From: an uncultured Candidatus Saccharibacteria bacterium
Lineage (GTDB): Bacteria; Patescibacteriota; Saccharimonadia; Saccharimonadales; JAGQNJ01
Direction: 5' to 3'
Length of the DNA stretch: 64,000 bases
Assembly (NCBI GenBank): GCA_964590205.1
Contig: CAZPVO010000002.1
Coordinates: forward strand, 1,005 to 65,004
Below are positions 5,237-38,317 of the stretch, piece by piece (position 1 is the stretch's first letter; every line of letters begins with the position of its first letter). Below the pieces are notes generated by a model, which made no database searches, was not told the DNA's origin, and saw only the letters and a program-made list of their open reading frames with translations. Made by a program: the position numbers and the translations under genes.

Positions 5237-5506
5237 TTATGCCATGTCCCATTGATTTTCTAAACTTGCCCTGGCAGCTTGATCTGCAATATCTGCTGCT
5301 ACTTGTCCAAGATATTGTTCGTACTTAAATTGATGGTACGGTGGTAATTCACCTGATGCCATCTTGCGATGATTCTCGGCCATGTTGTCTGAAAAATAAA
5401 CTCCTCCAACGTAAAAGCCTCGAGCAGTTTCTCCACCAAGTCGAACAGGAACACCTTGTTTTATTAATGATGTTTCGGGTTCGGTACTGATTGTTTCCAT
5501 GCTCAT
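5237..5506 (-). CDS. hypothetical protein (89 aa)
   Basis: ORF with a GGAG RBS 11 nt after the upstream stop. Lies between grpE and dnaK. No family recognised. Confidence 0.5.
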   Translation of the reverse strand: MSMETISTEPETSLIKQGVPVRLGGETARGFYVGGVYFSDNMAENHRKMASGELPPYHQFKYEQYLGQVAADIADQAARASLENQWDMA

Positions 5507-5517
5507 GTTATTTCTCC

Positions 5518-5856
5518 TTAATTATTAGGTTCTTCTTTTTCAAGTAAAGATAAAACGCTATTTGATCTTCGCAATGTATAAAATCGAGGGCAGTCGCCAT
5601 TAACTATCGTCGCTGCACATCCTTTGGCGGCTATAATTTGCTCTAAGCTAAACCCTTCTCTCCGCGCAAAACGCCTTGCAGCTTCTTCGCTGACTGCGCC
5701 CTCGGTTCCTGTTAAGTTTGCAATATACTGTGATACTAGAAGTTCACTATCAAGTTCGGTAACTCCAGGATTCAGTGTCTGATTAGCCATAGAGCATAAA
5801 TTAGGGCCACAGTTGTCAGCAACACCCGGACTGTGCAATATATCCGGCCTACTCAT
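5518..5856 (-). CDS. hypothetical Cys-containing protein (112 aa)
   Basis: The ATG at 5856 forms an ATGA overlap with the upstream ORF stop (MSRPDILHSPG...). No family recognised. Confidence 0.5.
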   Translation of the reverse strand: MSRPDILHSPGVADNCGPNLCSMANQTLNPGVTELDSELLVSQYIANLTGTEGAVSEEAARRFARREGFSLEQIIAAKGCAATIVNGDCPRFYTLRRSNSVLSLLEKEEPNN

Positions 5857-10973: not shown

Positions 10974-11042
10974 GGTACAATAAAACATAAGCATACGAGG
11001 AACAGTTGTTGTAATGAAAGAACTTCCCAGCGAGAAACAAAT
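10974..11042 (+). promoter_or_regulatory. conserved cassette leader 1 with 10-codon uORF (MKELPSEKQI)
   Basis: GGTACAATAAAACATAAGC block. The uORF 11014-11046 has its TGA overlapping the main ATG (ATATGA). Homologous to the leaders at 13224 and 15398. Confidence 0.5.
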
Positions 11043-13223: not shown

Positions 13224-13290
13224 GGTACAATAAACCATAAGCTCGTGAGGGCAAATTTTGGTATGAAGAAAAAAACTTTGAGGATAATAA
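13224..13290 (+). promoter_or_regulatory. conserved cassette leader 2 with 11-codon uORF (MKKKTLRIINE)
   Basis: GGTACAATAAACCATAAGCTCGTGAGGGCA block. The uORF 13263-13298 ends 2 codons into the main ORF. SD GAGGA lies inside the uORF. Confidence 0.5.
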
Positions 13291-13941
13291 ATGAGTAGGC
13301 TACCAACACCGGGTGGTGATGCCGGTAACTGGGGTGATATTCTTAATGACTTTTTAGATCAGTCGCATAATAGTGATGGGACATTAAAAGACAGTGCTGT
13401 TTCAAGTTCCGCATTGCTGAAAAGCAATAATTTGAGTGATGTGAGTTCAACGAGCTCTGCACGCACAAATCTAGGCTTAGGTGATTCGGCCACCAAAAAT
13501 GTTGGCTCAATTGCCGGTACGGTTGCTGCCGGTAATGACAGCCGCTTAAGCGATACTCGTGTGCCGACTGATGGGTCTGTAACGCCTACTAAGTTGGACC
13601 GTGGCTACACTGAATCAAAAAACGGTGGTAAAGAGGGCATCCAAGCCCACGGCAGTACAGGATCGGCTGTCACCATTAATCTTGCCAACGGCAATGTCCA
13701 CACAGCCACCCAAAACCAATCCTGCACATACACCTTTACTGGCGCCACCAGCAGTACATCCTGTTCGTTTCTATTAATACTTGGTGGCGTAACCGGCATC
13801 CCAACCTGGCCGGTAAACGTAAAGTGGGCCAATGGCAGCATCCCAACAATATCAGGAGAATGCATTCTAACTTTTGTAACAGTTGATGGCGGAACTAATT
13901 GGTATGGGTCATTGGTAGGCAATGACTTTGCAACAGCTTAG
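13291..13941 (+). CDS. tail-fibre-like protein, shared N-terminal module (paralogue 2)
   Basis: N-terminus MSRLPTPGGDAGNWGDILNDFLDQSHNSDGTLK. The C-terminus (...ILTFVTVDGGTNWYGSLVG) resembles phage fibre or receptor-binding tips. No signal peptide. Confidence 0.65.
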   Translation: MSRLPTPGGDAGNWGDILNDFLDQSHNSDGTLKDSAVSSSALLKSNNLSDVSSTSSARTNLGLGDSATKNVGSIAGTVAAGNDSRLSDTRVPTDGSVTPTKLDRGYTESKNGGKEGIQAHGSTGSAVTINLANGNVHTATQNQSCTYTFTGATSSTSCSFLLILGGVTGIPTWPVNVKWANGSIPTISGECILTFVTVDGGTNWYGSLVGNDFATA

Positions 13942-15397: not shown

Positions 15398-15467
15398 GAC
15401 TAGTAACCATAAGCTCTTGAGGGCATGTTTTGCTATGAAAGAAAAAATACTTAGGATACAAAACTAG
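15398..15467 (+). promoter_or_regulatory. conserved cassette leader 3 with 10-codon uORF (MKEKILRIQN)
   Basis: TAGTAACCATAAGCTCTTGAGGGCA block. The uORF 15435-15467 has its TAG directly abutting the main ATG. Confidence 0.5.
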
Positions 15468-16820
15468 ATGAGTAGATTACCAACTCCAGGAAGTGATGCC
15501 GGTAACTGGGGTGATATTCTTAATGACTTTTTAGATCAGTCGCATAACTCTGATGGAAGTCTAAAAAGTTCAGCCGTAACAGCTGCAGGCGGTGATTCAA
15601 GCACTAAAGTTAGCAAGTCTGGCGACACCATGACAGGCGGCTTACATGTTGATGATGGGGGTGGAGCAACATCAGATCTTGAAGCTGGTGCACTATACGT
15701 TAGTACGAATGATGGTCTACATCAGGCTTCTCTTAATTCGTCATACCTTTCAATTTCCGATACCACCACCGGTAATAATGTCGGGGGCTTTTTTGGGCAG
15801 GACGGCAAAGCTCTACTCTTTGGCGCAAGTACAAGCGACTATGCCTATGTTTCGGCACTGTCGACGGATTTTCAAGTTCGCTGGCAAGTCTTGCACGACG
15901 GATCAATCAGTTGGGGTGATGGATCGGCTTCCCCCGATACGGTCATATCTCGGACGGCTGCAAACACACTGTCAATGGGAGCCGGTGACAAGCTCCAACA
16001 AAATGCAGCGCCGACTACCGGTGATGACCTGACCAATAAAACCTATGTCGATAGCACGGCTGGTTCTCCGTCAGCCGCGGTCATTCTGGCTCCTGGATCT
16101 TCCACTAGAAATATTATCCAGCCTAGCGGCAACTTTAAGCCGCTCATTGTTCGTGGTCATTCAACCCAAGCCACTTCCCTACTTGAACTTCAAAACAGTA
16201 CCCCCACAGCCCTCTTTACAGTTGCCTCTGATGGTGCAGTTACTATGGCCAGCTCAGTCACTCACAGTTTGGGTGCAAGCACCGTTGTCAATCACTCAGG
16301 AGGTTTATATCAAGGACGGCAAGTTAAAGTTGACGGGTATTTTTCTAATACTTCAGGTAATCCACCGGGTGTCGGATTAATACGCTTAAATAACGCTGAG
16401 GTTATTGCTTGGCGCAATGCCGGCAATTCTGCTGATTACACACTTACGGTTGATAGTACTGATCAACTCGTGACAACAACAGGTGTGACGGCAAGTGGAC
16501 AAGTAACTGATCATCAGAACATTAATGCACAGACCGGCACAACGTATACGCTTGTTATTGGTGACGACGGCAAAATAATTACACTGAGTAATGCCTCGGC
16601 GATTACACTGACGGTGCCAACTAATGCTTCGGTGGCCTTTCCGATAGGTACGCGTATTGATCTGATTCAAAAAGGAGCTGGACAAGTAACTGTTGCTGCT
16701 GCAGGTGGAGTAACGATTAATGCGACACCGGGGCTTAAAGCACGTGCCCAATATTCTGCCGCCACACTTATTAAAGAGGCTACGAACACTTGGTACTTGG
16801 TTGGAGACCTGAGTGCATGA
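15468..16820 (+). CDS. tail-fibre-like protein, shared N-terminal module (paralogue 3)
   Basis: N-terminus MSRLPTPGSDAGNWGDILNDFLDQSHNSDGSLK. C-terminus ...FPIGTRIDLIQKGAGQVTV...NTWYLVGDLSA is phage minor-tail-like. No signal peptide. Confidence 0.65.
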   Translation: MSRLPTPGSDAGNWGDILNDFLDQSHNSDGSLKSSAVTAAGGDSSTKVSKSGDTMTGGLHVDDGGGATSDLEAGALYVSTNDGLHQASLNSSYLSISDTTTGNNVGGFFGQDGKALLFGASTSDYAYVSALSTDFQVRWQVLHDGSISWGDGSASPDTVISRTAANTLSMGAGDKLQQNAAPTTGDDLTNKTYVDSTAGSPSAAVILAPGSSTRNIIQPSGNFKPLIVRGHSTQATSLLELQNSTPTALFTVASDGAVTMASSVTHSLGASTVVNHSGGLYQGRQVKVDGYFSNTSGNPPGVGLIRLNNAEVIAWRNAGNSADYTLTVDSTDQLVTTTGVTASGQVTDHQNINAQTGTTYTLVIGDDGKIITLSNASAITLTVPTNASVAFPIGTRIDLIQKGAGQVTVAAAGGVTINATPGLKARAQYSAATLIKEATNTWYLVGDLSA

Positions 16821-18550
16821 GTGCCTATCCACTAGGGGTAGTTGCATCTGAATTAAATCGGCACACCAATGCCCCACTCGGTCCGTGGGCCGAAGGTGGC
16901 GACGTAGTGTTCATCGACGGCTGGGAAATCCACACCTTCACTGGTAACGGCACGCTCACCGTGCTACGAGACACGAATGCTGACTATCTCGTGGTCGGTG
17001 GTGGTGGCGGAGGCAGCGTCGGTGGTGGTGGAGCCGGTGGTCTACTCACAGGTACCGACACAGTATTGGTTGGCGACCTGCCGGTCACGGTCGGAGCAGG
17101 AGGTGCAGGCGAAACGTCGTCTGCCGACAACGCTGGAACTGGCAGCAACTCGGTCTGGAACGGTCACACTGCTCTTGGGGGTGGTGCAGGAGGTTTTATC
17201 GGTAATGGCCATCCCGGAGGCTCGGGTGGCGGTGGTGGTGGCATAGGCGGAGGTGGTGGCGGAGCTGGCACTGTCGGCCAAGGCAATAATGGTGGTGGCC
17301 CTGGCGGAGGCACATGTGGAGCGGGTGGTGGTGGTTCTGGCGCAGTTGGACAGCAGGCTAATCCATCGGGTGGAGACGGGCATGGCGGTGACGGTGGCGC
17401 AGGGACGTCATCGTCAATCTCTGGTTCATCTGTCGATTATGCCGGAGGCGGGGGTGGTGGTGGCACCGCTTCCCAAGGTAATGGCGCTGCAGGGGGCGGC
17501 AACGGGGCCAATTTCGGACCAGGTGCACCGGCCGCAGCAAATACCGGTAGTGGTGGTGGTGGTATCTATTCGGCATCACCTGGTGGTGCTGGAGGAAGTG
17601 GCGTCGTAATCCTGAGGGCACTCGGTTCACCTCGCCCTGACCCACCGTCTGCGCTGGTACTCACTCCCGGAGCAACGTCGATAGACGTCGCATGGACTAA
17701 CTCTCCATCTGGCAATGTCGACCACTATGAGTACCGAGTCAGTCATGACGGCGGTTCGACATGGTCGCCTGACTGGACGACAACTCCGTCTGGCTCGCCG
17801 TTCACAATAAGTGGCCTGACAGCAGGCACCGAGTACACGGTTGCTCTGCGCGCAGTCGACACTGATGCCATTGCATCAACGGTGATCAGCGACACAGCAT
17901 CGACGCCGAGTACCTACGATGCACTCATGGCAGGGCTGATCTCCAATCCACTTGATGTTTATTACCCTATGACCGAGACAAGCGGAACCACTATTCAAGA
18001 TTCGTCGGGTAATGGACTTAATCTAACCGCCTCGGCAACAATTGTTGGAGATGGTACATCAATCCAGTTCGATGGAAATTATGACGCTTCGCGAGCATTG
18101 GCATTTACCTCAGCTTTCCATGCACCCAAAACCGAGATCGTGTGGCTCAAAACCTCAACAGTTGTTGATACGCTTGCGATGCTCATGTGGCGTACCCCTG
18201 GTGGTGGCGATGCAGGCGGTTTATTTCTTAACTTCGTCGGTGATGACGGCAACGCCGAACTGTATCTGAACAGTGGAGCTCGCGGTGCTTGGGGTGGCAA
18301 TGCACTAAATAATAACCAGTGGCATATGCTCGCTTTTGTTCATGATGTTGGATTTGACTACTCAGTCTATCTCGATGGTGTTGCCGTGCGAGCAGGTGGC
18401 GGTGACGGTATTGGTTCGAGCAATGCCACCACCTTGTTTGTCGCTAGCAACGACGGCATCCAAAAGTTCATCGGTAGCCTTCGCCGAGTGTCTGTACTAC
18501 ACACACTACTCAGTGACTCGGACATCGCCGCGTTGTGGGCTGCTGGGTAA
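16817..18550 (+). CDS. glycine-rich domain / fibronectin-III / LamG protein
   Basis: ATGA overlap with paralogue 3. DYLVVGGGGGGS... poly-Gly domain ending GGSGVVILR, an FN3 segment (...YEYRVSHDGGSTWS...TEYTVALRAVD), and a LamG-type end (FIGSLRRVSVLHTLLSDSDIAALW). Confidence 0.65.
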   Translation: MSAYPLGVVASELNRHTNAPLGPWAEGGDVVFIDGWEIHTFTGNGTLTVLRDTNADYLVVGGGGGGSVGGGGAGGLLTGTDTVLVGDLPVTVGAGGAGETSSADNAGTGSNSVWNGHTALGGGAGGFIGNGHPGGSGGGGGGIGGGGGGAGTVGQGNNGGGPGGGTCGAGGGGSGAVGQQANPSGGDGHGGDGGAGTSSSISGSSVDYAGGGGGGGTASQGNGAAGGGNGANFGPGAPAAANTGSGGGGIYSASPGGAGGSGVVILRALGSPRPDPPSALVLTPGATSIDVAWTNSPSGNVDHYEYRVSHDGGSTWSPDWTTTPSGSPFTISGLTAGTEYTVALRAVDTDAIASTVISDTASTPSTYDALMAGLISNPLDVYYPMTETSGTTIQDSSGNGLNLTASATIVGDGTSIQFDGNYDASRALAFTSAFHAPKTEIVWLKTSTVVDTLAMLMWRTPGGGDAGGLFLNFVGDDGNAELYLNSGARGAWGGNALNNNQWHMLAFVHDVGFDYSVYLDGVAVRAGGGDGIGSSNATTLFVASNDGIQKFIGSLRRVSVLHTLLSDSDIAALWAAG

Positions 18551-28613: not shown

Positions 28614-28688
28614 AGCGGGGTGGAGCAGCGGCAGCTCGCGTGGCTCATAACCACGAGGTCGCAGGTTCGAGTCCTGCCCCCGCAACCA
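28614..28688 (+). tRNA. initiator-type tRNA-Met (CAT)
   Basis: AGCGGGGTGGAGCAGCGGCAGCTCGCGTGGCTCATAACCACGAGGTCGCAGGTTCGAGTCCTGCCCCCGCAACCA. Closely resembles E. coli tRNA-fMet (GCGGGGTGGAGCAGC...CCCCGCAACCA) and has an unpaired 1:72 position. Confidence 0.85.
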
Positions 28689-30237
28689 AGTAAGAATTTA
28701 AAGCCCTTTCGGGGGCTTTTTGTATTGAAATACATCTGTAAAGCTCGCTTATTTCTGAGGTTCCAAACTTATGGCTTGATGAGTCATACACTACACCCCT
28801 TGGGAACAACATGCTTTGGAACCTAATTTGCAAGTCAACCTCTGAAGAAGCCCATTGCTTGTCTACATTCTCCATAACGTTTATAGCTTGCTCAATGTCG
28901 GTTTCACGAATCATTTGCTGTTGTTCTAGCTTTGTTAAGTCAGATGTCACTTCAAGCTTTTGATTATCTAGGTCGGCTATATACGCGTCTTTCTCGTCTT
29001 TTGTAAGTTCTTCAGCAACGAACTTATCAATTGCCTTACTTCGCAGTTCGGATATTTTGTTTAGCTTTTCTCTGCTCAGGCCTATCCTTACATTAAGACT
29101 ATCTAGTGCAGCATTAGACTCTTTAACAAGTACGTGCTTATAAACCTTCAAGATTTCGCTAGAGGGTTTAATTTTTTCGAGCATCTTTTCAAACTCGTTG
29201 TGTACTATGTCCGCCTTCACCGACGGAACTTTACCAACACATGACTTTCGAGCACAGTGATACCTTGGAGATGACTGTCCATTACCCGTGGTTGGTGCAG
29301 ATGAGTATAGTGATTTATTACAATTACGGCATAGCAACAAACCACGTAAAGGATACCTGCTGTTTATGTGGTCATGTCTTTCACCTTTTCGAGAGTTTTC
29401 ACCATAAAGCAGGTTATGATTTCGTTTAAAGACTTCCTCACTAATAATGGCAGGGTGCTTACCTTGGACATTTTTGTAGTTTGTAAACTTATCCGATACA
29501 TAACCTGCATACGTCGGGTTCTTTATTAGCCTATGTATACTGTCTTCGCCTAAGAATTTATCATATCGGCTCTTAAGCCCAACTTGCTTTGCATAACGTG
29601 TGAGCTCAGCCTTTGAAATATCACCAACACTAAATCTTTCCAATACACTCTTTACTTTATCAGCCATAGGTGTCTTTCTAAGTGTTGGTCTTAGCTTGCC
29701 TAAATCATTAGGAATTTTATTAGGCAAATAGCCAACAATAGGTGGGTGCTGATAGAACCCCTGCATTGCTAATGAACGCATGTTATCAATTGTCACTTCA
29801 GCTTTTCCTTCATTATCAAGTTGGCCAAGAGCAACAAGCAGATTTTCCATAAACCTCCCCTCTTTTGTGTCGTTAACAGCTGGTTCTGTTGCTGACCGAA
29901 TCGTTATCCCGCTTGCCCTCAACACGAGTTTGACGTTGGTGGTGTATGAATCGTTATCACGAGAGGCTCGCTTCATGTTGTAAACAACCCAGTGGTTTAT
30001 TTCAGACTTGTGTTTAATGCAGTAGTTCAGCAGTGCTTGTAATCCATCACGCTCTGTATTCTTGCCAGACTTAGCAATATCTTCAAACCATTTAACTATG
30101 TGTATATTGTTTAGGTCAGCAAATCTCTGAATACTGTCACGTTGCGTAATAGGACTTTCGTTATTTACCTGCCTTTGTGACGATATCCTTATGTAAGCGA
30201 CTGCTTTTTTCTTGGACTCATTCATACTTGTTTCCAT
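28645..30237 (-). CDS. large serine recombinase (integrase)
   Basis: Resolvase catalytic N-terminus AVAYIRISSQRQ, a recombinase domain, a zinc ribbon CRNC...RYHCARKSC, and a coiled-coil. The last ~15 codons are antisense to the tRNA. Confidence 0.9.
   Translation of the reverse strand: METSMNESKKKAVAYIRISSQRQVNNESPITQRDSIQRFADLNNIHIVKWFEDIAKSGKNTERDGLQALLNYCIKHKSEINHWVVYNMKRASRDNDSYTTNVKLVLRASGITIRSATEPAVNDTKEGRFMENLLVALGQLDNEGKAEVTIDNMRSLAMQGFYQHPPIVGYLPNKIPNDLGKLRPTLRKTPMADKVKSVLERFSVGDISKAELTRYAKQVGLKSRYDKFLGEDSIHRLIKNPTYAGYVSDKFTNYKNVQGKHPAIISEEVFKRNHNLLYGENSRKGERHDHINSRYPLRGLLLCRNCNKSLYSSAPTTGNGQSSPRYHCARKSCVGKVPSVKADIVHNEFEKMLEKIKPSSEILKVYKHVLVKESNAALDSLNVRIGLSREKLNKISELRSKAIDKFVAEELTKDEKDAYIADLDNQKLEVTSDLTKLEQQQMIRETDIEQAINVMENVDKQWASSEVDLQIRFQSMLFPRGVVYDSSSHKFGTSEISELYRCISIQKAPERALNSYLVAGAGLEPATSWL
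28699..28722 (+). terminator. intrinsic terminator after tRNA-fMet
   Basis: AAAGCCC-tttc-GGGGCTTT followed by TTG. Confidence 0.6.
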
Positions 30238-30262
30238 AATACACCATGTAATTTATTGGAAC

Positions 30263-30418
30263 CTATAATTTGAGTGATTTTCTAGCTATTAGGGTTAGTA
30301 CATTAACTAGTTCTTGCACTTGGTGGTCGGTTAAGTAACTATACTTGCGTCCTAGCAGTTTTTTAGCCTCTATGACGGTAGTTTTGGGAGGTTCATGCAA
30401 GTCATTGCTATTGAGCAT
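30263..30418 (-). CDS. possible small protein (51 aa), not in ORF track
   Basis: Own translation MLNSNDLHEPPKTTVIEAKKLLGRKYSYLTDHQVQELVNVLTLIARKSLKL. The ATG overlaps the upstream gene stop by 11 nt. It fills the gap before the recombinase. Confidence 0.3.
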   Translation of the reverse strand: MLNSNDLHEPPKTTVIEAKKLLGRKYSYLTDHQVQELVNVLTLIARKSLKL

Positions 30419-30713
30419 CAGAAGCCCTCACAGGGCTGCTAAATGTACGAGCCTCTTTCACATACTTGCTGAATAATTTTCCTGGGAAGTCTCCTTCTGA
30501 GGCACGCCTACGCCATTCGTTGACCTGTGCATAGCCAAAGTCTTTTACTACACCGCAATACCATTTTCGAAACTGCACATTGTTATATTCAGCAACCAAT
30601 TCGTCAGCAAGCTTATCAATGGCTTCAATTGGTAACTGTTTAATTGAAGTGTCCGATGAACTGTCTATTGGCAGTTGTTTGTTACTTAAAATATTTGAAA
30701 TGCCAGTACTCAC
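30408..30713 (-). CDS. hypothetical protein (101 aa), element-borne
   Basis: ORF only. No family recognised. Confidence 0.5.
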   Translation of the reverse strand: MSTGISNILSNKQLPIDSSSDTSIKQLPIEAIDKLADELVAEYNNVQFRKWYCGVVKDFGYAQVNEWRRRASEGDFPGKLFSKYVKEARTFSSPVRASDAQ

Positions 30714-30766
30714 ATCCCAATTGTATGTACGACTTCAGAATGTAGCTGCCCCAACAAACAAAATTA

Positions 30767-31159
30767 TTATCTGGTCTTTAAATATTTCTTATTTCTGTTG
30801 TAGTATTTTTGTAAGTCAAATTCAGTTAAGAAGGGATATTCGCCATCAAAGTATGGTATCTCGTCGTTCGCATATGCTTCATGTATGTTTTTAAATGTTA
30901 GTTTACGTTTCCTTAAGAAATACACGCCATATAGTAAAACAAGGTCTTTCGGTGGCTTCACTCTTTTATAGTGCTTTTTCCCTGTTACTTTTGCACGTGC
31001 ATCACTAAACGTATCCCATGCCTGAAGAAACTCTTCCTTCGTAGCATCAATCCCAAATGAAATAATAAATTTCTGCTTCTCAACGTCGTAGTCCATTCCT
31101 ATATTTTTATTTGGAATGTTCTTTTTCATTTTGAACCAGAGCTTTAACCGAAGCTCCAC
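30767..31159 (-). CDS. hypothetical protein (up to 130 aa), element-borne
   Basis: ORF only. The start is uncertain (internal Met at MKKNIPNK). Confidence 0.45.
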   Translation of the reverse strand: MELRLKLWFKMKKNIPNKNIGMDYDVEKQKFIISFGIDATKEEFLQAWDTFSDARAKVTGKKHYKRVKPPKDLVLLYGVYFLRKRKLTFKNIHEAYANDEIPYFDGEYPFLTEFDLQKYYNRNKKYLKTR

Positions 31160-31484
31160 CTAGTATGGGTTTTACCTCTTGTAATGTATGTTCAAAATCA
31201 TGTTTTAGACTAAATTCGTCTTTCTTTTTTCTTTCTAGATACTTTAATGCCAAGTCAGGACTTTTCTCAAACGATTTAATAACAGAAGCTCTGGCTTTAA
31301 GAATTGGCATTTCTTTTAACTGTGTTTTTCGCTCCAGAAACTTTGGGTTCTTCTCTTGAAATTTATAGAGTGTTGCGGGGGCTATATTAGCATATAAGGT
31401 GGCTTCTAAGTCTGTACAGCCTAATGCAAACGCCTCTTCAAGCTTGCTTCTCACTTCGCTTGTCATTATTGTTGGTCTACCCAT
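31107..31484 (-). CDS. HTH protein, terminase-small-subunit-like / DNA-binding
   Basis: The ATG at 31484 is preceded by AGGAGGG. MGRPTIMTSEVRSKLEEAFALGCTDLEATLYANIAPATLYKF resembles N-terminal HTH domains of phage small terminase or transposase-associated proteins. Confidence 0.45.
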   Translation of the reverse strand: MGRPTIMTSEVRSKLEEAFALGCTDLEATLYANIAPATLYKFQEKNPKFLERKTQLKEMPILKARASVIKSFEKSPDLALKYLERKKKDEFSLKHDFEHTLQEVKPILGGASVKALVQNEKEHSK

Positions 31485-31500
31485 ATTTTTAACCCTCCTA

Positions 31501-32118
31501 TTAATGCAATGTCGTAGCGATGTCAACACACTCATTAATTGCTTGAGTATTGCTAACACCAACATATGAGGTGCATTGGTTTCTAGCATTATTACTGTCT
31601 GGTATATAAAAATATACGTAAAAGTATTCAGTTATAGGCTGGGCGTAGGTCTCTTTTGTAGAGTGCCCATCGCTGTACGTACAATTTTTACTCCAGCCGT
31701 TTACACCTTGAATATGTCCAGCACCGTTTCTATATAAAGAATGTGTCTCATACTGCACATCATTGTTGTTGGTACAACTTATAAGTGTTGGGCTAGAGAT
31801 AGTTTCCTGAGTTGGAGCTGACGGATTATTGCTACTAACTGAAGGTTTAATGCTACTACTTGTTGAAGACGATTGACTATTATTATCAGATTTTGTTGTT
31901 TGTGTTGTAGGATTGGTTGTAGTTGTCTTTTCTTTAGCATTAGGTTGTTCATTTGACGTTTGATTTTGGTTGCTTTGATTATTTAATGAATCATGGGATT
32001 TTAAGGCATAGATACCTACTGGCAGGGATATTAGCAATCCGAAAAATAGACCAATTAATAGCTTGGTGTTATTTTTAGTAACTTTTTTTATACCGCTAAG
32101 ATATTTCTTCACACCCAC
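31501..32118 (-). CDS. membrane-anchored/secreted protein with S/T/N-rich linker
   Basis: N-terminal TM helix (LLIGLFFGLLISLPVGIYAL), then a low-complexity QTSN/ST-rich stretch, then a Cys-containing globular end. Confidence 0.55.
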   Translation of the reverse strand: MGVKKYLSGIKKVTKNNTKLLIGLFFGLLISLPVGIYALKSHDSLNNQSNQNQTSNEQPNAKEKTTTTNPTTQTTKSDNNSQSSSTSSSIKPSVSSNNPSAPTQETISSPTLISCTNNNDVQYETHSLYRNGAGHIQGVNGWSKNCTYSDGHSTKETYAQPITEYFYVYFYIPDSNNARNQCTSYVGVSNTQAINECVDIATTLH

Positions 32119-32327
32119 ATTATATACTTAAAAAATCAAGTACTGTTAGCATGGTTAGATACTGTATACGCCGGCGTATATGTATATACGGCAAATAATG
32201 AAGATATCCAATTAAGGAGTCTCTTTATGTTTTCGGTCAATATTGGTGATACAATCGAAATAGCAATGTGAGTATGAGTTGTATAACATCCATCGCCCAC
32301 ATGCTTATTAACAAGGTGGCAAACTCA

Positions 32328-32993
32328 CTAAGCAGCTACGGGCTTAAGCAACGATTTATCATTGTTCCTAGGGCTGTTTACGTCCCTGCTAACCTCATAG
32401 ATTTCTAGACCATTGTCTTCGAACGGAAACAGTAGTGACTCTAAGTTCTCAGGTTTGTCGTTTGATGGCTCAATCCAAGAAGCTTCGGCTTCAGGATGTA
32501 ATATCACTGGCATTCTATTGTGAATTGCCTTCATCTCTTTATTCGGTTCTGTGGTCATAATCGAATACGTTTTAATTTCATGACCATCTTTGCTTTTCCA
32601 ATTATCCCAGATCCCAGCAAAGGAATATAATTCGATCTTTTTAGGGTGAATGTAGAAGGGTATTTTGCCGTCTTTAGAAGCCCGCCACTCGTAGAAACCT
32701 GTGGCTGGCACTAAACATCGGTGATTTAGCACAGTACGCTTCCAGAAACCCCCAAAGGCCTTGTCAGCTCGAGTGTTAATAAGCTCTTTAACTAAGTCTT
32801 TTCCCAGCATACGCGGTATACCCCATTGCATGGTTTCAATACGCCGCTTTCCGGTTTCGTCTTCAATAATTACAGGCATTTCCTGTGAAGGCGACACATT
32901 GTAGTTTTCCCGAATGTCTTTCGGTTTGTTATCCACTTTAAAACGCTTCACAAGCTTTCCGGTTTTCACATCGAGTGTATAACGACCGCACAT
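32328..32993 (-). CDS. SOS-response-associated peptidase (SRAP / YedK-HMCES family)
   Basis: True start MCGRYTL (catalytic Cys2) at 32993. Family-typical ...FYEW... and ...MPVIL... motifs. Confidence 0.85.
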   Translation of the reverse strand: MCGRYTLDVKTGKLVKRFKVDNKPKDIRENYNVSPSQEMPVIIEDETGKRRIETMQWGIPRMLGKDLVKELINTRADKAFGGFWKRTVLNHRCLVPATGFYEWRASKDGKIPFYIHPKKIELYSFAGIWDNWKSKDGHEIKTYSIMTTEPNKEMKAIHNRMPVILHPEAEASWIEPSNDKPENLESLLFPFEDNGLEIYEVSRDVNSPRNNDKSLLKPVAA

Positions 32994-33019
32994 ACTACTA
33001 ATTGTACTAGGAGATTGTA

Positions 33020-33286
33020 ATGAGAGAAAAAGTAAATCAAGAAGTAAGCGTTGTGATGTACTATTCAGCCAAGAAAAAGCAGGCAGTGCCACACATGCTG
33101 TATTGGCAGAATAAGGACTATATGCTCGGCAAAGTTGATTATTACCACAACTACATGGAGGGACGGGAGAAACAACATATTTTCGAGTTGTGCGACAAAG
33201 ACACTTCGCTGTGGTTCAGGCTGAGGCTAGATAGCAGTAATTTACACTGGACGCTGGAGGCTATTAGCGATGGACTTGCAACTTAA
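33020..33286 (+). CDS. hypothetical protein (88 aa) preceding the Y-family polymerase
   Basis: ORF overlapping or abutting the polymerase start. Its position is analogous to UmuD/YolD-type accessory genes, but no motif was recognised. Confidence 0.45.
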   Translation: MREKVNQEVSVVMYYSAKKKQAVPHMLYWQNKDYMLGKVDYYHNYMEGREKQHIFELCDKDTSLWFRLRLDSSNLHWTLEAISDGLAT

Positions 33287-34505
33287 CGATATAGACCCGC
33301 TGATAATGCATGTAGACCTCAATAGTGCCTATGCAATCATTGAACAACAGGCTAATCGATTGATTAGACATAAACCTGTGGGTGTTGCAGCATATGACTC
33401 ACCTGGGGGTTTCATAATCGCCTCATCATATGAAGCAAAGCGTTTGGGCATTAAGCTCATGAGAATAAGAGAGGCACGAGATATTACCAAGGACTTAGTA
33501 ATACTTACTCCTGACCCTGAGAAATACTTTGATGCACATAGAAGGTTTAGGGAGGTATTGGAGCGATATACAAATGAAGTTACACCAAAGTCTGTCGACG
33601 AGTTTGTCGTTGAATTCACACGCTCAAAAACTGTCAGAGAGGGCAAGAGCCTTGTTGAGGCGGGGTTTAAGATAAAAAGAGATATAAAGAAGTCGCTCGG
33701 CGAATACGTGACCGTAAATATAGGAATTGCACCGAATAGATTCTTGGCTAAGGTGGCTGCCGGTATGGATAAGCCAGATGGACTTGACGTAATTACGGCC
33801 AAAGACATCCATAATATATATGGGCAATTAGACCTTATGGATTTACCAGGTATTAATCATCGCTATAAAGCACGACTGAATATTGCGGGTATATATACTC
33901 CATTAGAATTTCTAAATGCACCCATGCCAAAACTTAAGAAAGAAGTCTTCAGAAGTATCGTTGGTTACTATTGGTTTCTTCGATTACGCGGATATGAAAT
34001 CGACTCGGAAAAGTTTAAGACTAAAAGCTTCGGAAACGACTATGCAGTTGGCGATAAGACAAGTGACCCAGATAAAGTAGCAAGATTGTTAATGAAGTTG
34101 TGTGAGAAGACTGGCAGAAGGCTCCGCAAACACGACTATCAAGCTTCTGGAGTATTCCTTGGCCTTGGGTTTGAGAATGGAACTTGGTGGGGAAAGAGCA
34201 AACGTTCTAAGAGCTACTTATACTCAACACAAGATATATATTTGCATTGTGTAAGGTTGATGAGAACAGTTTCATTCCCTGCCCGTGTAGTGCATATAAA
34301 CATCTCAGTGTTTGGGCTAGTCCCAGCAACACCAGTACAGCTTGGACTATTTGATGGCACAAGGTTAGATACAAGGTCGCTCGCAATCGCGTCTGACCGT
34401 GTTAATAATAGGTATGGCGAGTATACTGTTATACCTGCAACCATGGCAAACATGCAAGATACAATAATCAAGCGAGTGCCCTTCGGAAGCGTTCGTGATA
34501 TCTAA
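33270..34505 (+). CDS. Y-family DNA polymerase (DinB/UmuC-like)
   Basis: HVDLNSAYAIIEQ (catalytic Asp block), SVDEFVVEF (SxDE block), GIAPNRFLAKVAAGMDKPDG, LPGIN. Alternative start at 33306. Confidence 0.85.
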   Translation: MDLQLNDIDPLIMHVDLNSAYAIIEQQANRLIRHKPVGVAAYDSPGGFIIASSYEAKRLGIKLMRIREARDITKDLVILTPDPEKYFDAHRRFREVLERYTNEVTPKSVDEFVVEFTRSKTVREGKSLVEAGFKIKRDIKKSLGEYVTVNIGIAPNRFLAKVAAGMDKPDGLDVITAKDIHNIYGQLDLMDLPGINHRYKARLNIAGIYTPLEFLNAPMPKLKKEVFRSIVGYYWFLRLRGYEIDSEKFKTKSFGNDYAVGDKTSDPDKVARLLMKLCEKTGRRLRKHDYQASGVFLGLGFENGTWWGKSKRSKSYLYSTQDIYLHCVRLMRTVSFPARVVHINISVFGLVPATPVQLGLFDGTRLDTRSLAIASDRVNNRYGEYTVIPATMANMQDTIIKRVPFGSVRDI

Positions 34506-34932
34506 AAACTTTGCTGTGCATAACCGTTTTCACAAGATTGAATTATGTTATATACTCAAATTAATCAAGCCAGTGGTTTGAGCGTCTAAGGAAATAAATA
34601 AACCCCAATCTAAGTGAGAGGGGTTTATTTATATCATTTTTCTTTTTTTGCCTTTCGGCCAGGAGGGTTACCAAGCTTCGACCAGCAATATCATCTAAGG
34701 AAATTAGATGGGTAACCCCCCAAAAAATAAATGTGCCCGTAAGCTTGGTGGTACTATTACTAACCACCGAGCTTATAGATACATTTGCATTTAAAAGTTT
34801 GGAATGTTTGTAATAGTTTCTGGTCGAAGAGCCACCCCTTACGACTATAGACATCATAGACTTGCAGACAAGCTAAAGCAATAACTATAACGGTGTATTA
34901 TTTAGTACATTAAGGCCGTATCAGTTCTTGAC

Positions 34933-35050
34933 GTTCTAGTCCCCTGCGGTAGAGTAACTTAACTGTAGTTTTCCCCTAGAGAGCTGTAACCATCTTACTA
35001 GCTCCCAACTGATTTGGTTCCAATTCGAGTGTACGTGGGCAACCATAAGC
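34933..35050 (+). repeat. tRNA-fMet-like 118-nt repeat, copy 1
   Basis: Aligns end to end with copies at 36426 and 37243. Ends in GGTTCCAATTCGAGTGTACGTGGGCAACCATAAGC. Confidence 0.8.
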
Positions 35051-35055
35051 ATGTT

Positions 35056-35087
35056 GACCCTTGTTCAGACAGGGGTCTTTATTTTTT
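35056..35087 (+). terminator. intrinsic terminator after repeat copy 1
   Basis: GACCC-ttgttcagaca-GGGGTC followed by TTTATTTTTT. Confidence 0.7.
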
Positions 35088-35090
35088 CAC

Positions 35091-35630
35091 TTATTGTGGC
35101 CCTAATTCTGTCCTTGGGTCTATACCCAATGCTTTGTAAATTTCAGCTCTTCGCTTTGAGTTAAAATCTACCTTTCCATGCTCGATGCGGTTAACTACAA
35201 AACGAGAGCTATCGCCTAAACGCTCCGCAAATTCTGTTTGGTTTAATCCAAGTTCCTTTCGAGTAGTTCTTACCCGCTCAGATATTTCTTCAGGGGTTTC
35301 TTGCCAATATTCATGCACAGTTACATATCTATCTAGGCCAAGAGTAGCTGTTATGTCAGCAGCCGCACGTAGCAGCTCTGCCTGGCTGGCTTCATCACCT
35401 CTAGGCAAGCCCGCTTCTCTAAACGAAAGCTCTCTTAAGATTCCGATAAGAGCTACATTATAGTCACTTACCATATCTCTCTGCATGGCTATTCTATAGT
35501 CTTCAAGATTATCTGCTACTTCTATCAGTGGGAAAACCTCATCATTGAAAGGGTGGGCCTCACATGGAATTAGGTGACTGGGGTCTAGTGGCGGCATTGA
35601 ATACGGTTTGACTTCATGTTGTTCTGGCAT
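35091..35630 (-). CDS. XRE-family HTH regulator with unknown N-terminal domain
   Basis: C-terminal LGLNQTEFAERLGDSSRFVVNRIEHGK. Divergent from ORF 35739. Confidence 0.7.
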   Translation of the reverse strand: MPEQHEVKPYSMPPLDPSHLIPCEAHPFNDEVFPLIEVADNLEDYRIAMQRDMVSDYNVALIGILRELSFREAGLPRGDEASQAELLRAAADITATLGLDRYVTVHEYWQETPEEISERVRTTRKELGLNQTEFAERLGDSSRFVVNRIEHGKVDFNSKRRAEIYKALGIDPRTELGPQ

Positions 35631-35683
35631 AGTTATTCCTTATTTCTTAACCTTGACATCCTAACAAACACATTCCATAACTA

Positions 35684-35703
35684 ATATGAATTGTTTTTCA
35701 TAT
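35684..35703. promoter_or_regulatory. inverted repeat ATATGAA-N6-TTCATAT in divergent promoter region
   Basis: Perfect 7-bp arms between the divergent XRE and wHTH genes. Candidate operator. Confidence 0.4.
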
Positions 35704-35738
35704 TTTTTGAGCTTTTTATCTAATGCTATGCTTAAGGA

Positions 35739-36416
35739 ATGGTACAAAATGCAGGCTTATTAATGCTCCGTTCATTTCAGCAACAGAACTCTCGAACATT
35801 TGTTGAACTATGCAAAGAAGCAGGTTACCCAACAGACTTGGGGGGCTATTACTTGCGTCAACTTCTGAACAGTCAATATTTGGAAAAGGGCAAGCGTGGT
35901 GAGTACCTTTTAGCTGCAAAAGGACGACAATACCTAGCCACCACAAAAGACAAGCCCAAAACAGCTCCTAGGCCACACATATTAGTGGTTCCTACTGTTG
36001 GTAAAAATTTTGTAGCTATTGAGCGTTCGGCTCAACCTTTTCTAAAAAGGAAGGAATGGCCAGCAACATTGATACACAGTGGAGAAGCAAAAGATGAAGC
36101 CGTTCACAGGTTACTAGCAAAACAACTAACTCAAACCGATAACATCACATATTGTGGGGTCTTTCGAAGATTAGATTATTACGAAGACCAGCTTTTTGAT
36201 GACAAGTTATTCTTTGTACACAAAGTTGATTTACAAGATATCCCAACACCTAACGATGCCAAGCATAAAATAGTTCAAATTAATGAGGGTGAAATAGAAA
36301 GGTTACAGAATAAATCTAGGAGCTTATTAGATATTTTGCACTTCGTAAACTCTGGAAAAAGCTACCAGGAACAAAAGTACACCCTGGAATACGATGACTT
36401 TGAACCCACCTCATAA
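35739..36416 (+). CDS. winged-helix regulator-like protein with C-terminal Nudix-like (degenerate) domain
   Basis: The N-terminus is MarR/wHTH-like (FVELCKEAGYPTDLGGYYLRQLLNSQYLEKGKRGEYLL). The C-terminal part has only a degenerate Nudix-box-like stretch (SGEAKDEAVHRLLAKQL). Confidence 0.45.
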   Translation: MVQNAGLLMLRSFQQQNSRTFVELCKEAGYPTDLGGYYLRQLLNSQYLEKGKRGEYLLAAKGRQYLATTKDKPKTAPRPHILVVPTVGKNFVAIERSAQPFLKRKEWPATLIHSGEAKDEAVHRLLAKQLTQTDNITYCGVFRRLDYYEDQLFDDKLFFVHKVDLQDIPTPNDAKHKIVQINEGEIERLQNKSRSLLDILHFVNSGKSYQEQKYTLEYDDFEPTS

Positions 36417-36425
36417 ACTTCAGAA

Positions 36426-36543
36426 GTTCTAGTCTGCTGCGGTAGAGTAACTTATCTTTGGTTCACCCCTCGAGAGCTGCAACCACCTAACTAGCTCTCT
36501 ACTGATATGGTTCCAATCCGAATGTACTTGGGCAACCATAAGC
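36426..36543 (+). repeat. tRNA-fMet-like 118-nt repeat, copy 2
   Basis: Starts 10 nt after the ORF 35739-36416 stop. Aligns with copies 1 and 3. Ends GGGCAACCATAAGC. Confidence 0.8.
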
Positions 36544-36549
36544 ATTTTG

Positions 36550-36575
36550 ACCTCTGTCTAATCGCAGAGGTTTTT
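36550..36575 (+). terminator. intrinsic terminator after repeat copy 2
   Basis: ACCTCTG-tctaatcg-CAGAGGT followed by TTTT. Confidence 0.7.
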
Positions 36576-36627
36576 CAGTAAATTATTCGAGTATTTTGAC
36601 ATATTGAGTGTGCTATTATAAAACTTA

Positions 36628-37233
36628 ATGACTAACCCAAATCAGCAAGCAGCTGAACAGCCCTCTACCCCACAGCAAGCTGCAGGTATATTCACACAAA
36701 TTGGTGAGTTGACTGCATTCCAAGGCAAGCAATACGGTGATACCCATTCTTTTAGTGATAAACAAGTCGAAGTTCCAGACAGTATTGCTACACATTTCCC
36801 TAAAGCCGAAGCCGATAGTGAAAGTATTGATACAAACATGTATGTGAGTCAACATTTTGACCGAGAGTCAGGGCAGCCTCAAAGGACTGGTGTTGTCGGC
36901 ATCGTTACATTTACCCAAAGTGAAAGACACGATGCTGATTTAATTTATGCTACGCATGTTAATTATCACGTCATCAGTGATACTGGTGAAACCTTTCGTC
37001 TGGAAAGACATGTTACAAACACTGAACATGGCCCCCATAAAGTTGCAGAACATGCACTTGGTAGAGCAGCAACTCGCGAGGATATACAACGTAAACTAGA
37101 TGAAACCAGAGAATTATTAGCTAAGGTGCGGGAATCGAGAAAAGTTGAGGCAGAGTTAGGCTTGCTGACAGTATCGTCTCGTGAAGCAGAACAAATCTTG
37201 AAGGTTCTTAGTAAATATAATGAGGCAGAATAA
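36628..37233 (+). CDS. hypothetical protein (201 aa), element-borne
   Basis: ORF only. No family recognised. Confidence 0.55.
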   Translation: MTNPNQQAAEQPSTPQQAAGIFTQIGELTAFQGKQYGDTHSFSDKQVEVPDSIATHFPKAEADSESIDTNMYVSQHFDRESGQPQRTGVVGIVTFTQSERHDADLIYATHVNYHVISDTGETFRLERHVTNTEHGPHKVAEHALGRAATREDIQRKLDETRELLAKVRESRKVEAELGLLTVSSREAEQILKVLSKYNEAE

Positions 37234-37242
37234 AGACCACAG

Positions 37243-37357
37243 GTTCTACAATTATGCGGTAGAGTATGCTAACTGATGCTCAACTCTAGAAAGCTGTAAC
37301 CACCTAACTAGCTCTCTATTGATTAGGTTCCAATTCGAATGTACCCCCGCAACCAAG
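37243..37357 (+). repeat. tRNA-fMet-like repeat, copy 3 (most tRNA-like)
   Basis: Starts 10 nt after the ORF 36628-37233 stop. Its 3' end CCCCCGCAACCAAG is identical to the tRNA-fMet 3' end plus flank. 5' TGCGG can pair with 3' CCGCA. Confidence 0.8.
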
Positions 37358-37363
37358 AAAAGA

Positions 37364-37390
37364 GTTTCACCATTATGGTGGAACTTTTTT
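37364..37390 (+). terminator. intrinsic terminator after repeat copy 3
   Basis: GTTTCACC-attat-GGTGGAAC followed by TTTTTT. Confidence 0.7.
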
Positions 37391-37442
37391 CTTTATTGGA
37401 GCAAGATTCGGTTCTGCGACTTGGCTGCTTTAGTAGACAATA

Positions 37443-37521
37443 GTCGCAGGTTCGGTCGTTAGTCTGTTGCCCGAGAGAATCTCGGCGTACAGATTAACGT
37501 GCGATTGTCCTGCCCCCGCAA
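37443..37521 (+). other. split remnant of tRNA-fMet 3' half (possible old att junction)
   Basis: GTCGCAGGTTCG ... 52-nt insert ... GTCCTGCCCCCGCAA, then AAAGTAAAAT, which resembles the tRNA flank CCAAGTAAGAAT. Confidence 0.55.
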
Positions 37522-37573
37522 AAAGTAAAATCCTCATCGTAAGATAGGGATATTATTTTGGTATGATTAGTTT

Positions 37574-38317
37574 ATGCAGATACTTGAAACGAATAACTTC
37601 GAGGTAGCAGCTAATATAAAAGGCGATCCTAATGCAAAGCAAGTCGTCATATTAATGCCAGGCCGTTTGGATACTAAGGATTATGCAAACTTTGTTAGTC
37701 ATCTAAACGTTTTAGCCAGCGAAGGTTTTTACGCAGCAGCAATAGATGTACCAGGAACCTGGGACAGTCCAGGAGACATAGCCAACTACTCAACCAGTAC
37801 ATATATACAGACCGTAAACGAGTTGATTGATTACTTTGGCAATCGCCCTACCGTACTTCTTGGGCACAGCCGTGGTGGCGCGACAGCAATGTTAGCATCT
37901 GAAAATCCAAACGTTGTGGGCCTTGTGCTGGTAAATGCGGCCTACGGCAATCCATCAGCCCCAGATCAGGCAAGTGTTGAAAGCAATGTACATCCAGAAG
38001 GCAGAGACCTGCCACCTGGAAATGTGCGTACTAAAGAGCAAAAACATTTTGACCTACCAATGAACTATTTTGAAGATGGGGCTAAATATAATCCGTCGCA
38101 GGCGCTTGCTAATTTCGACGGCCTTCGACTTTTAATTCACGGGACAAAAGACGAATTTGTTCCCATAGACAAAGTGAAATCAATTTACAGCAGCTTATCT
38201 GATCCTAAAATGTTTCTTGAAGTTGACAGCGCACACGATTATCGCTTATACCCAGAAGTTATTGAAGAAGTAAACGAAGCATTGCGAGATTTTATTGGTA
38301 AGTTGGTTGTGGGTTAG
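37574..38317 (+). CDS. alpha/beta hydrolase
   Basis: Nucleophile elbow GHSRGG and C-terminal acid/His region (...GTKDEFV...SAHDY). Confidence 0.7.
   Translation: MQILETNNFEVAANIKGDPNAKQVVILMPGRLDTKDYANFVSHLNVLASEGFYAAAIDVPGTWDSPGDIANYSTSTYIQTVNELIDYFGNRPTVLLGHSRGGATAMLASENPNVVGLVLVNAAYGNPSAPDQASVESNVHPEGRDLPPGNVRTKEQKHFDLPMNYFEDGAKYNPSQALANFDGLRLLIHGTKDEFVPIDKVKSIYSSLSDPKMFLEVDSAHDYRLYPEVIEEVNEALRDFIGKLVVG

Follow-up and report, generated by a model that had tools for sequence, protein, structure and literature searches.

Repeats downstream of tRNA-fMet in Saccharibacteria as probable detached tails of a large serine recombinase gene

Introduction

In an uncultured Candidatus Saccharibacteria bacterium (assembly GCA_964590205.1, contig CAZPVO010000002.1), three similar segments of about 116 nucleotides (nt) lie downstream of an initiator tRNA gene, and the question raised by this locus is what these repeats are and how they came to stand there. 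The stretch that we analysed, referred to here as the window, comprises 64,000 nt of that contig. A first-pass annotation of the sequence had described the segments as resembling tRNA-fMet, and considered that they might be scars of serial integrations at the tRNA, recombination sites bounding mobile gene cassettes, or transcribed tRNA-like elements at the 3' ends of mRNAs. Mobile elements of Saccharibacteria are poorly known, and our literature search returned no account of such a system in this group. Here we argue from sequence comparison that each repeat is very probably the detached 3' tail of a large serine recombinase (LSR) gene (~105 nt, antisense to the tRNA) plus one half, the left, of the attachment site of the element that carried it.

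Results

A repeat family downstream of tRNA-fMet

Repeat finding in the window placed all three copies in one family (34930-35064, 36423-36557 and 37240-37374), the second and third copies being 84% and 68% identical to the first, and a MAFFT alignment of the three contained no internal gaps, which confirms that they align end to end as first described. According to the family model, every unit ends in ACCA, and the copies and the hairpins behind them are as follows (an asterisk denotes a stop codon).

34930-35045, plus strand: repeat A1, putative attR of the resident element described below; minus strand 34936-35043 encodes VAHVHSNWNQISWELVRWLQLSRGKLQLSYSTAGD*, read as the detached native LSR tail
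35056-35087, plus strand: terminator after A1, forming the left end of the next unit; a TAAGCAT...hairpin family that also stands behind the tRNA in locus L020
36423-36538, plus strand: repeat A2; minus strand 36429-36536 encodes VAQVHSDWNHISRELVRWLQLSRGEPKISYSTAAD*
36549-36577, plus strand: terminator after A2, with a weak match to the PsrR1 terminator
37240-37355, plus strand: repeat A3; the minus-strand open reading frame (ORF) has a premature stop, VAGVHSNWNLINRELVRWLQLSRVEHQLAYSTA*L* (…AYSTA*L*)
37358-37395, plus strand: terminator after A3, whose arms are an A-tract and a T-tract

The presence of a hairpin and T-run close behind each copy was borne out, with folds of -14.0, -12.7 and -16.0 kcal/mol after A1, A2 and A3, respectively; a simple terminator scan is passed by the first only. 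A2 and A3 do begin just past plus-strand stop codons, those of the ORFs at 35739-36416 and 36628-37233, at a distance of 10 nt if the start given in the first-pass annotation is used and of 6 nt from the family start.

Loci bearing further copies were gathered from genomes and metagenomes and carry labels such as L004 and L017. Scanning GTDB genomes for the pattern turned up true homologues in two metagenome-assembled genomes of Saccharibacteria (L004 and L005), a metagenome scan added 23 loci, and a hidden Markov model built for the family gave 86 hits (66 distinct sequences) at 40 Saccharibacteria or Patescibacteria loci. The family thus numbers at least 66 distinct copies, well beyond what chance could produce. 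At none of the 40 loci do copies occur on both strands, and wherever a locus includes a tRNA the repeats are downstream of the 75-nt tRNA-fMet, on the same strand. The largest arrays hold eight (L012), six (L017) and five (L005) copies, spaced 0.7-2 kb apart. ORFs directly upstream of repeats are co-oriented and mutually unrelated (33 clusters among 43 proteins), and very often terminate at the first TAG of the repeat. The cargo is accessory: short-chain dehydrogenase, aldo/keto reductase, histidine phosphatase, kinase, NUDIX and pilin-like proteins, and also defence genes beside a repeat, namely a cyclase of the cyclic oligonucleotide-based antiphage signalling system (CBASS) type in L011 (7527-8888; a SMODS cyclase with an AGS-C sensor domain) and an NgoPII-type restriction-modification system with a helix-turn-helix (HTH) regulator in L056 (3137-5167). 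Phage and plasmid collections contained zero matches to the repeat; in IMG/VR, pattern scans for the repeat returned chance matches within genes only, and a scan with the LSR protein found zero relatives.

The repeats as coding sequence on the opposite strand

Forty distinct copies were used for the structure and coding tests. The family is almost indel-free, with conserved blocks around a variable centre (information content of 1.44 bits at positions 1-28, 0.81 at 29-57 and 1.62 at 86-105). Read antisense in the frame of the LSR gene, 30 of the 40 copies contain an ORF of exactly 35 codons, VAQVHSNWNLILSELSRW…YSTAxD*, with the consensus VAQVHSNWNLILSELSRWLQLNREATGLVYSTAxD*. Entropy at codon positions 1, 2 and 3 is 0.70, 0.60 and 0.94, making the third position the most variable, and the ratio of nonsynonymous to synonymous differences (pN/pS) is 0.50 in this frame and 1.0-1.5 in four of the five others; the sense frame that has third-codon positions in common with it gives 0.58, yet holds stop codons inside. 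The only stop in frame -1 of the repeat is the conserved LSR stop codon. The blocks that had initially been taken for D-arm, anticodon and T-loop motifs are instead opposite-strand codons for YSTA, RWLQL and HSNWN.

The same tail is found at the end of LSR proteins. Among the C-termini of 120 LSR homologues, 11 read ...LVAQVHSNWNLILEELSRW...YSTAAD (LVAQVHSNWN...YSTA), and 101 end, like the LSR of the window, in ...LVAGxGLEPxTSWL, which is antisense of the tRNA. The tail of LSR P0045, from an unrelated contig, matches the three window repeats in tblastn with E = 3e-12 to 5e-11 (A1, 4.8e-11; A2, 3.9e-12; A3, 2.9e-12). Cargo gene and LSR meet tail to tail at this point, in the sequence TAG-GTT-CTA, which explains why the start of the repeat coincides with the stop of the gene upstream; the palindromic CTAG a few bases past the TAG is the LSR stop on the opposite strand. 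At the level of sequence, we regard both the coding nature of the repeats and the existence of two LSR tail forms as established.

Three alike copies within 2.5 kb could also have arisen by in-situ tandem duplication, or as conserved 3' flanks of paralogous genes, decaying without function, and paralogous gene repeats do exist in the left half of the window (families D2, D5 and D7). This reading is contradicted by the genes upstream of the repeats, which are unrelated, by the divergence of copies within one locus, which is mostly synonymous in the antisense ORF (pN/pS 0.43, range 0.31-0.47; A1 versus A2, 0.31), and by the spread of the family over 40 loci and many samples, always tied to tRNA-fMet; we find it hardly credible.

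No support for a tRNA-like structured RNA

Several approaches were used to evaluate the repeats as RNA. Rfam RF00005 (tRNA) has no match across 34850-37600 even at E <= 10, no Rfam family matches the repeats at gathering thresholds, and ARAGORN calls only the three true tRNA-Met genes in the window and none of the repeats. Single-sequence folds of the copies on both strands are comparable to those of shuffles (z from -0.4 to -1.6). On the 40 copies, RNAalifold gives -0.86 kcal/mol, and compensatory substitutions, proposed at the outset as a test, are absent, with zero pairs changed on both sides; the sole candidate hairpin, in the centre, is paired in 66.7% of cells versus 68.1% in shuffles, and a column-pair mutual-information scan of the repeats found no covarying columns.

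The resemblance to tRNA-fMet holds in part. In semi-global alignments, the consensus and copies A1 and A2 reach z = 1.6-2.5 against tRNA-fMet, and the other two tRNA-Met genes score alike; A3 is the only significant copy (z = 6.1), because its last 14 nt (37342-37355, CCCCCGCAACCAAG) are identical to the tRNA 3' end, where the rest of the family has TTGGGCAACCA. The 3' end of A3 looks like a tract of recombination or conversion with the tRNA, and A3 may accordingly be a recombinant or converted copy. The only feature that the whole family has in common with the tRNA is the 3' core GC-N-ACCA.

An effect on mRNA processing or stability, exerted by transcribed tRNA-like 3' untranslated elements or small RNAs, was the third of the original hypotheses. 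The position between stop codon and terminator makes co-transcription with the upstream gene very likely, the repeats hold a T-loop-like TTCGAAT and terminate in ACCA, and A3 alone gives a cloverleaf-like fold. However, neither the database and gene-finder searches nor the folds, consensus structure and covariation analysis described above recovered such an RNA, substitutions are distributed as in a protein encoded on the opposite strand, and partial copies that lack the 5' half persist. We therefore reject the repeats as tRNA-like structured RNA, and consider a role of this kind very unlikely.

Two arrangements of the recombinase gene and an attachment site within it

The main parts of the locus to which the repeats belong are the following.

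28614-28688, plus strand: tRNA-fMet gene, anticodon CAT, 75 nt (ARAGORN; Rfam tRNA, 60.3 bits); 3' end ...CCCCCGCAACCA
28645-30237, minus strand: LSR gene, 530 amino acids (aa) as integrated (Pfam Resolvase, Recombinase and Zn_ribbon_recom)
28689-28725, plus strand: left end of the element (P' arm), with AGTAAGA directly after ACCA, then a hairpin and T-run (fold -10.6 kcal/mol)
28689-35045, no strand assigned: resident LSR integrative element, 6.4 kb; besides the LSR it holds small ORFs (a TerS-like one among them) and genes for an SRAP peptidase and a Y-family polymerase, with A1 at the distal end (Pfam, PHROGs)

Of the three tRNA-Met genes in the window, the 75-nt gene is of the initiator type, and its 3' end is the putative integration target (attB, left half). 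The Pfam domains of the recombinase define a large serine recombinase, and a tyrosine recombinase catalytic domain is absent. Its final 14 codons, VAGAGLEPATSWL*, are the antisense of the 3' half of the tRNA, with the stop within the anticodon loop, and the gene adjoins the intact tRNA at one end of the element, as in islands that target tRNA genes; at eight further loci, too, LSR homologues are neighbours of this tRNA. The P' hairpin has a double role, here as well as in L011 and L045-L061: on the plus strand it is the tRNA-fMet terminator, and on the minus strand it encodes the ...KKDxxEPxKSFL of the LSR before the junction.

Among the more than 200 LSR homologues, contexts were fetched for nine, and the ten elements that result when the window is included fall into two arrangements. 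In eight elements, that of the window among them, the 3' end of the LSR gene overlaps tRNA-fMet in antisense orientation, and a repeat is found 4.2-6.4 kb beyond; in the other two (L050-L054; L056), the antisense overlap is with a repeat in place of the tRNA. The layout of the resident element recurs in five other LSR elements of 4.2-6.2 kb, and every LSR locus with enough sequence has the order tRNA-fMet, LSR, cargo, repeat. The P' arm is homologous in 10 of 10 elements and starts exactly past ACCA, its left partner being the tRNA in eight and a repeat in two. The 3' end of a single recombinase family thus takes one of two forms, according to the partner at the junction, and the P' arm is common to both. 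Given these two tail forms, and given that the tail is found where the gene abuts a repeat, the attachment site of the element would therefore lie inside its own recombinase ORF.

The junctions themselves are consistent with this placement. GC-N-ACCA ends the tRNA-fMet gene, the repeats and a further family, element X (see below), and the same few families of hairpin modules follow in all cases; these modules are largely specific to such junctions. The variable base N corresponds to tRNA position 72; loci differ in having A, T or G there, and the base agrees with that of the first repeat wherever both are readable. Sequence common to tRNA and repeat is limited to GC-N-ACCA, except for the 14 nt in A3 and ~16 nt of tRNA 3' sequence in element X.

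Removal of 28689-35045 predicts an empty target in which the tRNA is followed by TAAGCAT.TTGACCC and a hairpin, as is found behind the tRNA in L020. When the P' arm was fused in silico with the nearest repeat downstream, the in-frame 35-aa tail was restored in five of six integrated elements. In the window, A1, A2 and A3 can all be joined to the P' arm in frame, A1 yielding a 552-aa LSR and A3 a tail that stops two codons early. A candidate for the excised state is L050 (5533 nt), the ends of which overlap (245-345 = 5433-5533); L051 lengthens this overlap, which indicates a circle or tandem of 5188 bp. This form has one LSR and one repeat, the predicted attP configuration. The L050-L054 element was assembled in five samples and carries DUF805, a Zn-ribbon protein, small ORFs, the LSR and a 103-aa cargo ORF; L050 1-244 forms an alternative branch, from which we suspect that the population also holds a variant with other cargo.

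An AlphaFold (AF2) model of a full-length form has a folded core to about residue 500, a disordered linker and, at low confidence, a tail helix at 521-538. The integrated gene keeps all domains because the folded core ends near residue 500.

Together these observations support the following model. In the free circular element, the LSR ORF would cross attP, so that its last 35 codons lie beyond the crossover core GC-N-ACCA, and the LSR would recombine attP with the end of the tRNA-fMet gene, where an identical core is present. Integration would leave the tRNA intact with the P' arm behind it, the P' hairpin becoming the terminator of the tRNA transcript, and would replace the 35-aa tail of the LSR with 14 codons from the tRNA antisense (VAGxGLEPxTSWL*). 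The old tail would be left 4-6 kb off at the distal junction, directly behind the last cargo gene, whose stop would be the first TAG of the repeat. New elements would enter at the regenerated tRNA end and displace older units outward, producing arrays, and loss of the backbone, or capture and release, would then leave short cargo units that each carry a terminal repeat. In the window, A1 would be the attR of the resident element, A2 and A3 relics of two earlier units, and element X the close of the variable region. We infer that the LSR of the window catalyses this exchange, and any exact crossover dinucleotide would likewise be putative. The first of the original hypotheses, scars of serial integrations, is supported in this specific sense, each repeat representing the distal junction that a single LSR element would have left on entering the 3' end of tRNA-fMet.

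Several points weigh against this model. The tail helix is predicted with low confidence only (predicted local distance difference test, pLDDT, about 50), and the junction in L050 may reflect, in place of a free circle, a dimer in tandem or insertion beside a repeat. The LSR-less single-gene units keep intact tails, yet LSR remnants are undetected in them (tblastn, E <= 1), so that an origin of these units by backbone deletion is conjectural. Breakpoints between related arrays are scattered, at repeat positions of about 30, 86 and 106, and homologous recombination or gene conversion between repeats must therefore also act. Several families of right flank are unlike the LSR P' arm, so that other recombinases are possible for those units. 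Finally, excision and integration are themselves predicted, from the circular or tandem assembly and the in-silico joins.

A different use for the orphan repeats would be as genes for minus-strand micro-proteins of 36-38 aa, which might act in trans as modulators of the integrated LSR that lacks this tail. The ORF does remain intact in arrays, and where T follows ACCA, as in the TAAGCAT flank of A1 (35040-35056) and A2 (36533-36549), the antisense junction codon is an ATG that shares the frame of the tail and follows an AAGGG, and from which such micro-proteins could be translated. However, no start or ribosome-binding site is conserved across the flank families, a terminator hairpin stands upstream on that strand, and the proposal is superfluous as an account of the conservation if the copies diverged inside active elements. 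We consider it improbable.

Cassette arrays and population variation

Beyond A1, the window contains two units that we read as older.

35046-36538, no strand assigned: older unit 2, with a terminator, an HTH regulator (35091-35630, minus strand), a NUDIX-like ORF (35739-36416, plus strand) and repeat A2
36539-37355, no strand assigned: older unit 3, with a terminator, a promoter-like TTGACA...TATAAA, a 201-aa ORF without assigned function (36628-37233) and repeat A3

Variants at the level of whole units, which the first-pass annotation had proposed to look for in related populations, do occur. Array order and content differ among the related lake populations L017, L022, L024 and L029, all of which carry an aldo/keto-reductase unit and all of which end at the same conserved gene pair (a 99-aa and a 240-aa ORF). 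Over ~1.1 kb, this unit is 98.3-98.9% identical in L017, L022 and L024 and its neighbours differ; the shared block opens within the 3' end of the upstream repeat and closes at the downstream ACCA, and L017 and L022 show 18 mismatches, 10 of which lie in the repeat centre. In L024 the 3' end of the unit is present twice, and the repeat variant differs between the two. The position of the junction, the arrays and the mosaicism of the cassettes can thus be read directly from the assembled sequences.

It is possible, though we hold it with considerably less confidence than the junction model, that the repeats additionally serve as cassette recombination sites comparable to attC, the LSR moving single units in trans or capturing them via the distal repeat used as attR; this would add to the integration model and not exclude it. 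Up to eight co-oriented repeats per array stand between unrelated single genes, the aldo/keto-reductase unit is near-identical amid different neighbours, units without LSR remnants retain intact tails, and the LSR is joined to a repeat in L050 and L056. Against this, a circular form of an LSR-less unit was not found, the breakpoints within repeats vary in a manner consistent with homologous exchange, the LSR is not seen in most array loci, and LSRs normally tell attP from attB, repeat-by-repeat reactions being without precedent here. The earlier hypothesis of cassette sites therefore stands insofar as the repeats bound unrelated cargo, the same cassette has different neighbours in different lakes, and the LSR is found joined to a repeat; mobilisation in trans falls outside that support. 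LSR-less units may have arisen by backbone deletion, by trans-mobilisation, or by capture and release via alternative repeats.

Exact-protein look-ups for population variants returned the same Logan contigs only. Two Logan contigs from the sample of the window, L001 and L043, break inside all three tRNA-Met genes (26285, 28644 and 42664). These breaks likely reflect tRNA sequence common to co-occurring strains and not integration polymorphism, and we dismissed them as crossover evidence.

Element X, cargo of the resident element and other features of the window

The outer end of the variable region is marked by a second repeat family.

37402-37521, plus strand: element X, similar to the 3' half of tRNA-fMet with inserted covarying hairpins

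Element X (~120 nt) also occurs in L004, L009, L011, L012, L017, L022, L024, L027 and L029, in the same slot, to the left of an ACCA junction. Its 3' end is the T-stem and acceptor 3' strand of tRNA-fMet, it contains GCAGGTTCGG, and a ~60-nt covarying hairpin occupies the position of the T-loop; its 5' hairpin covaries with the local tRNA T-stem. Element X was also considered as a third coding tail and rejected, its antisense not being a conserved ORF.

Within the resident element, a 160-aa ORF (31107-31589, minus strand) is similar to the terminase small subunit family phrog_4102 (E = 2e-16), a hint that the element may live like a satellite; no homologue of this ORF was found in the other LSR elements examined. 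The gene for the SOS-response-associated peptidase (SRAP; 32328-33092, minus strand) is divergent from that for the Y-family (ImpB/MucB/SamB) polymerase (33270-34505, plus strand), and the two are a DNA-damage-tolerance pair on a mobile element.

In the left half of the window, three paralogous plus-strand genes (10974-11155, 13224-13403 and 15405-15580) have common N-termini and leaders (AACCATAAGC...) and give rise to repeat families D2, D5 and D7. These were tried as relatives of the tail repeats and found to be unrelated, being paralogue N-termini and leaders. The segment 16996-17463 consists of GGT/GGC-rich 33-nt repeats inside the ORF at 16790-18550, with a local G+C peak of 0.55; this ORF probably encodes a glycine-rich repeat protein.

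Discussion

Attachment sites within recombinase genes have been described previously. In myxophage Mx8 (IntP/IntX), attP lies within the integrase ORF and integration takes place in a tRNA gene, as reported in the treatment of that phage in PMC4383910, citing Tojo et al. 1996. The SSV-type ('suicidal') integrases of archaea also have attP in the ORF, and integration into a tRNA splits the gene (PMC8371274, PMC7253208); one review considers suicidal integrases exclusive to archaea (PMC8371274). The system described here resembles both in that the site is inside the recombinase coding sequence and integration at a tRNA alters the gene, with the detached piece at the other end of the element. It differs in that Mx8 and SSV use tyrosine recombinases, whereas the enzyme here is a large serine recombinase of Patescibacteria, and in that the exchange is limited to a 35-aa C-terminal appendage, all domains being kept.

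The arrays have counterparts among elements mobilised by serine recombinases. Staphylococcal cassette chromosome (SCC) elements use the ccr large serine recombinases, insert at the 3' end of rlmH and form tandem composite arrays. In Dehalococcoides, the ssrA genomic islands are likewise inserted by LSRs at a conserved gene, at its 3' end, and form tandem arrays (PMC3146451). Common to these and to the present arrays are insertion at a 3' end, tandem organisation bounded by repeated att sequences, and units inside that lack a recombinase. Here, however, insertion would take place at the CCA end of tRNA-fMet, units are of far smaller size and in many cases consist of one gene, and the boundary is a recombinase coding fragment of ~116 nt, in contrast to the direct repeat of ~20 bp of SCC and ssrA islands.

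Accretion of elements anchored at tRNA genes is known from tycheposons, which mostly use tyrosine recombinases (10.1101/2020.12.28.424599), and the Islander authors stated in 2014 that serine recombinases targeting tRNA genes were not known (PMC4383910). As in tycheposons and Islander islands, the tRNA is a hotspot at which newer elements displace older ones, remnants and cargo gather, and some elements resemble phage satellites; unlike those, in which a displaced tRNA fragment is the distal marker, the repeats here have only 7 nt (GC-N-ACCA) in common with the tRNA.

Integrons provide a further comparison. Their attC sites, of ~60-140 nt, are imperfect inverted repeats that fold into hairpins, and the system comprises the tyrosine recombinase IntI, attI and the promoter Pc. 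The present arrays are similar in their co-oriented, mostly single-gene units with a terminal site that has conserved ends, a variable centre and an overlap with the ORF stop. They are unlike attC arrays in that a conserved hairpin is absent, every unit comes with a terminator and promoter of its own, and the conservation comes from coding on the opposite strand; no IntI tyrosine recombinase or attI was found among the ORFs scanned, and the arrays start at tRNA-fMet, with an LSR in some.

A change of protein C-terminus upon integration has a parallel in the integration-dependent immunity of mycobacteriophages, where attP lies in the repressor ORF and integration in a tRNA gene by a tyrosine integrase alters the C-terminus and switches state (PMC9262239 and related work). 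The placement of attP inside an ORF and the altered C-terminus are shared, but the ORF here is the LSR itself, and a functional effect of the tail swap is conjecture, as is a regulatory role in activity or directionality. The system thus joins attP within an ORF, LSR tandem arrays and tRNA accretion in one LSR of Patescibacteria. The enzyme predicted to target a tRNA gene is here an LSR, and a recombinase gene that spans its own attP is an arrangement otherwise documented for the tyrosine integrases of Mx8 and SSV viruses.

We tentatively suggest that, for an LSR with attP in its own ORF, the exchange of a 35-aa helix for a 14-aa tail may act as an integration-state switch of activity, directionality or stability that needs no directionality factor, that stranded tails may be reusable as excision partners or landing pads, and that the tRNA-fMet locus may serve as an integron-like cassette platform in the ultra-small genomes of Patescibacteria. 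Should directionality indeed depend on the tail swap, tools based on serine integrases could make use of so simple and self-contained a switch. In practical terms, before indel-free repeats with conserved blocks around a variable centre are named as an RNA, their opposite strand should be examined for coding potential. What appeared to be a novel RNA family becomes, on the reading proposed here, a legible footprint in which each repeat would represent one integration event, and the arrays may then be read as the insertion history of a flexible Saccharibacteria locus.

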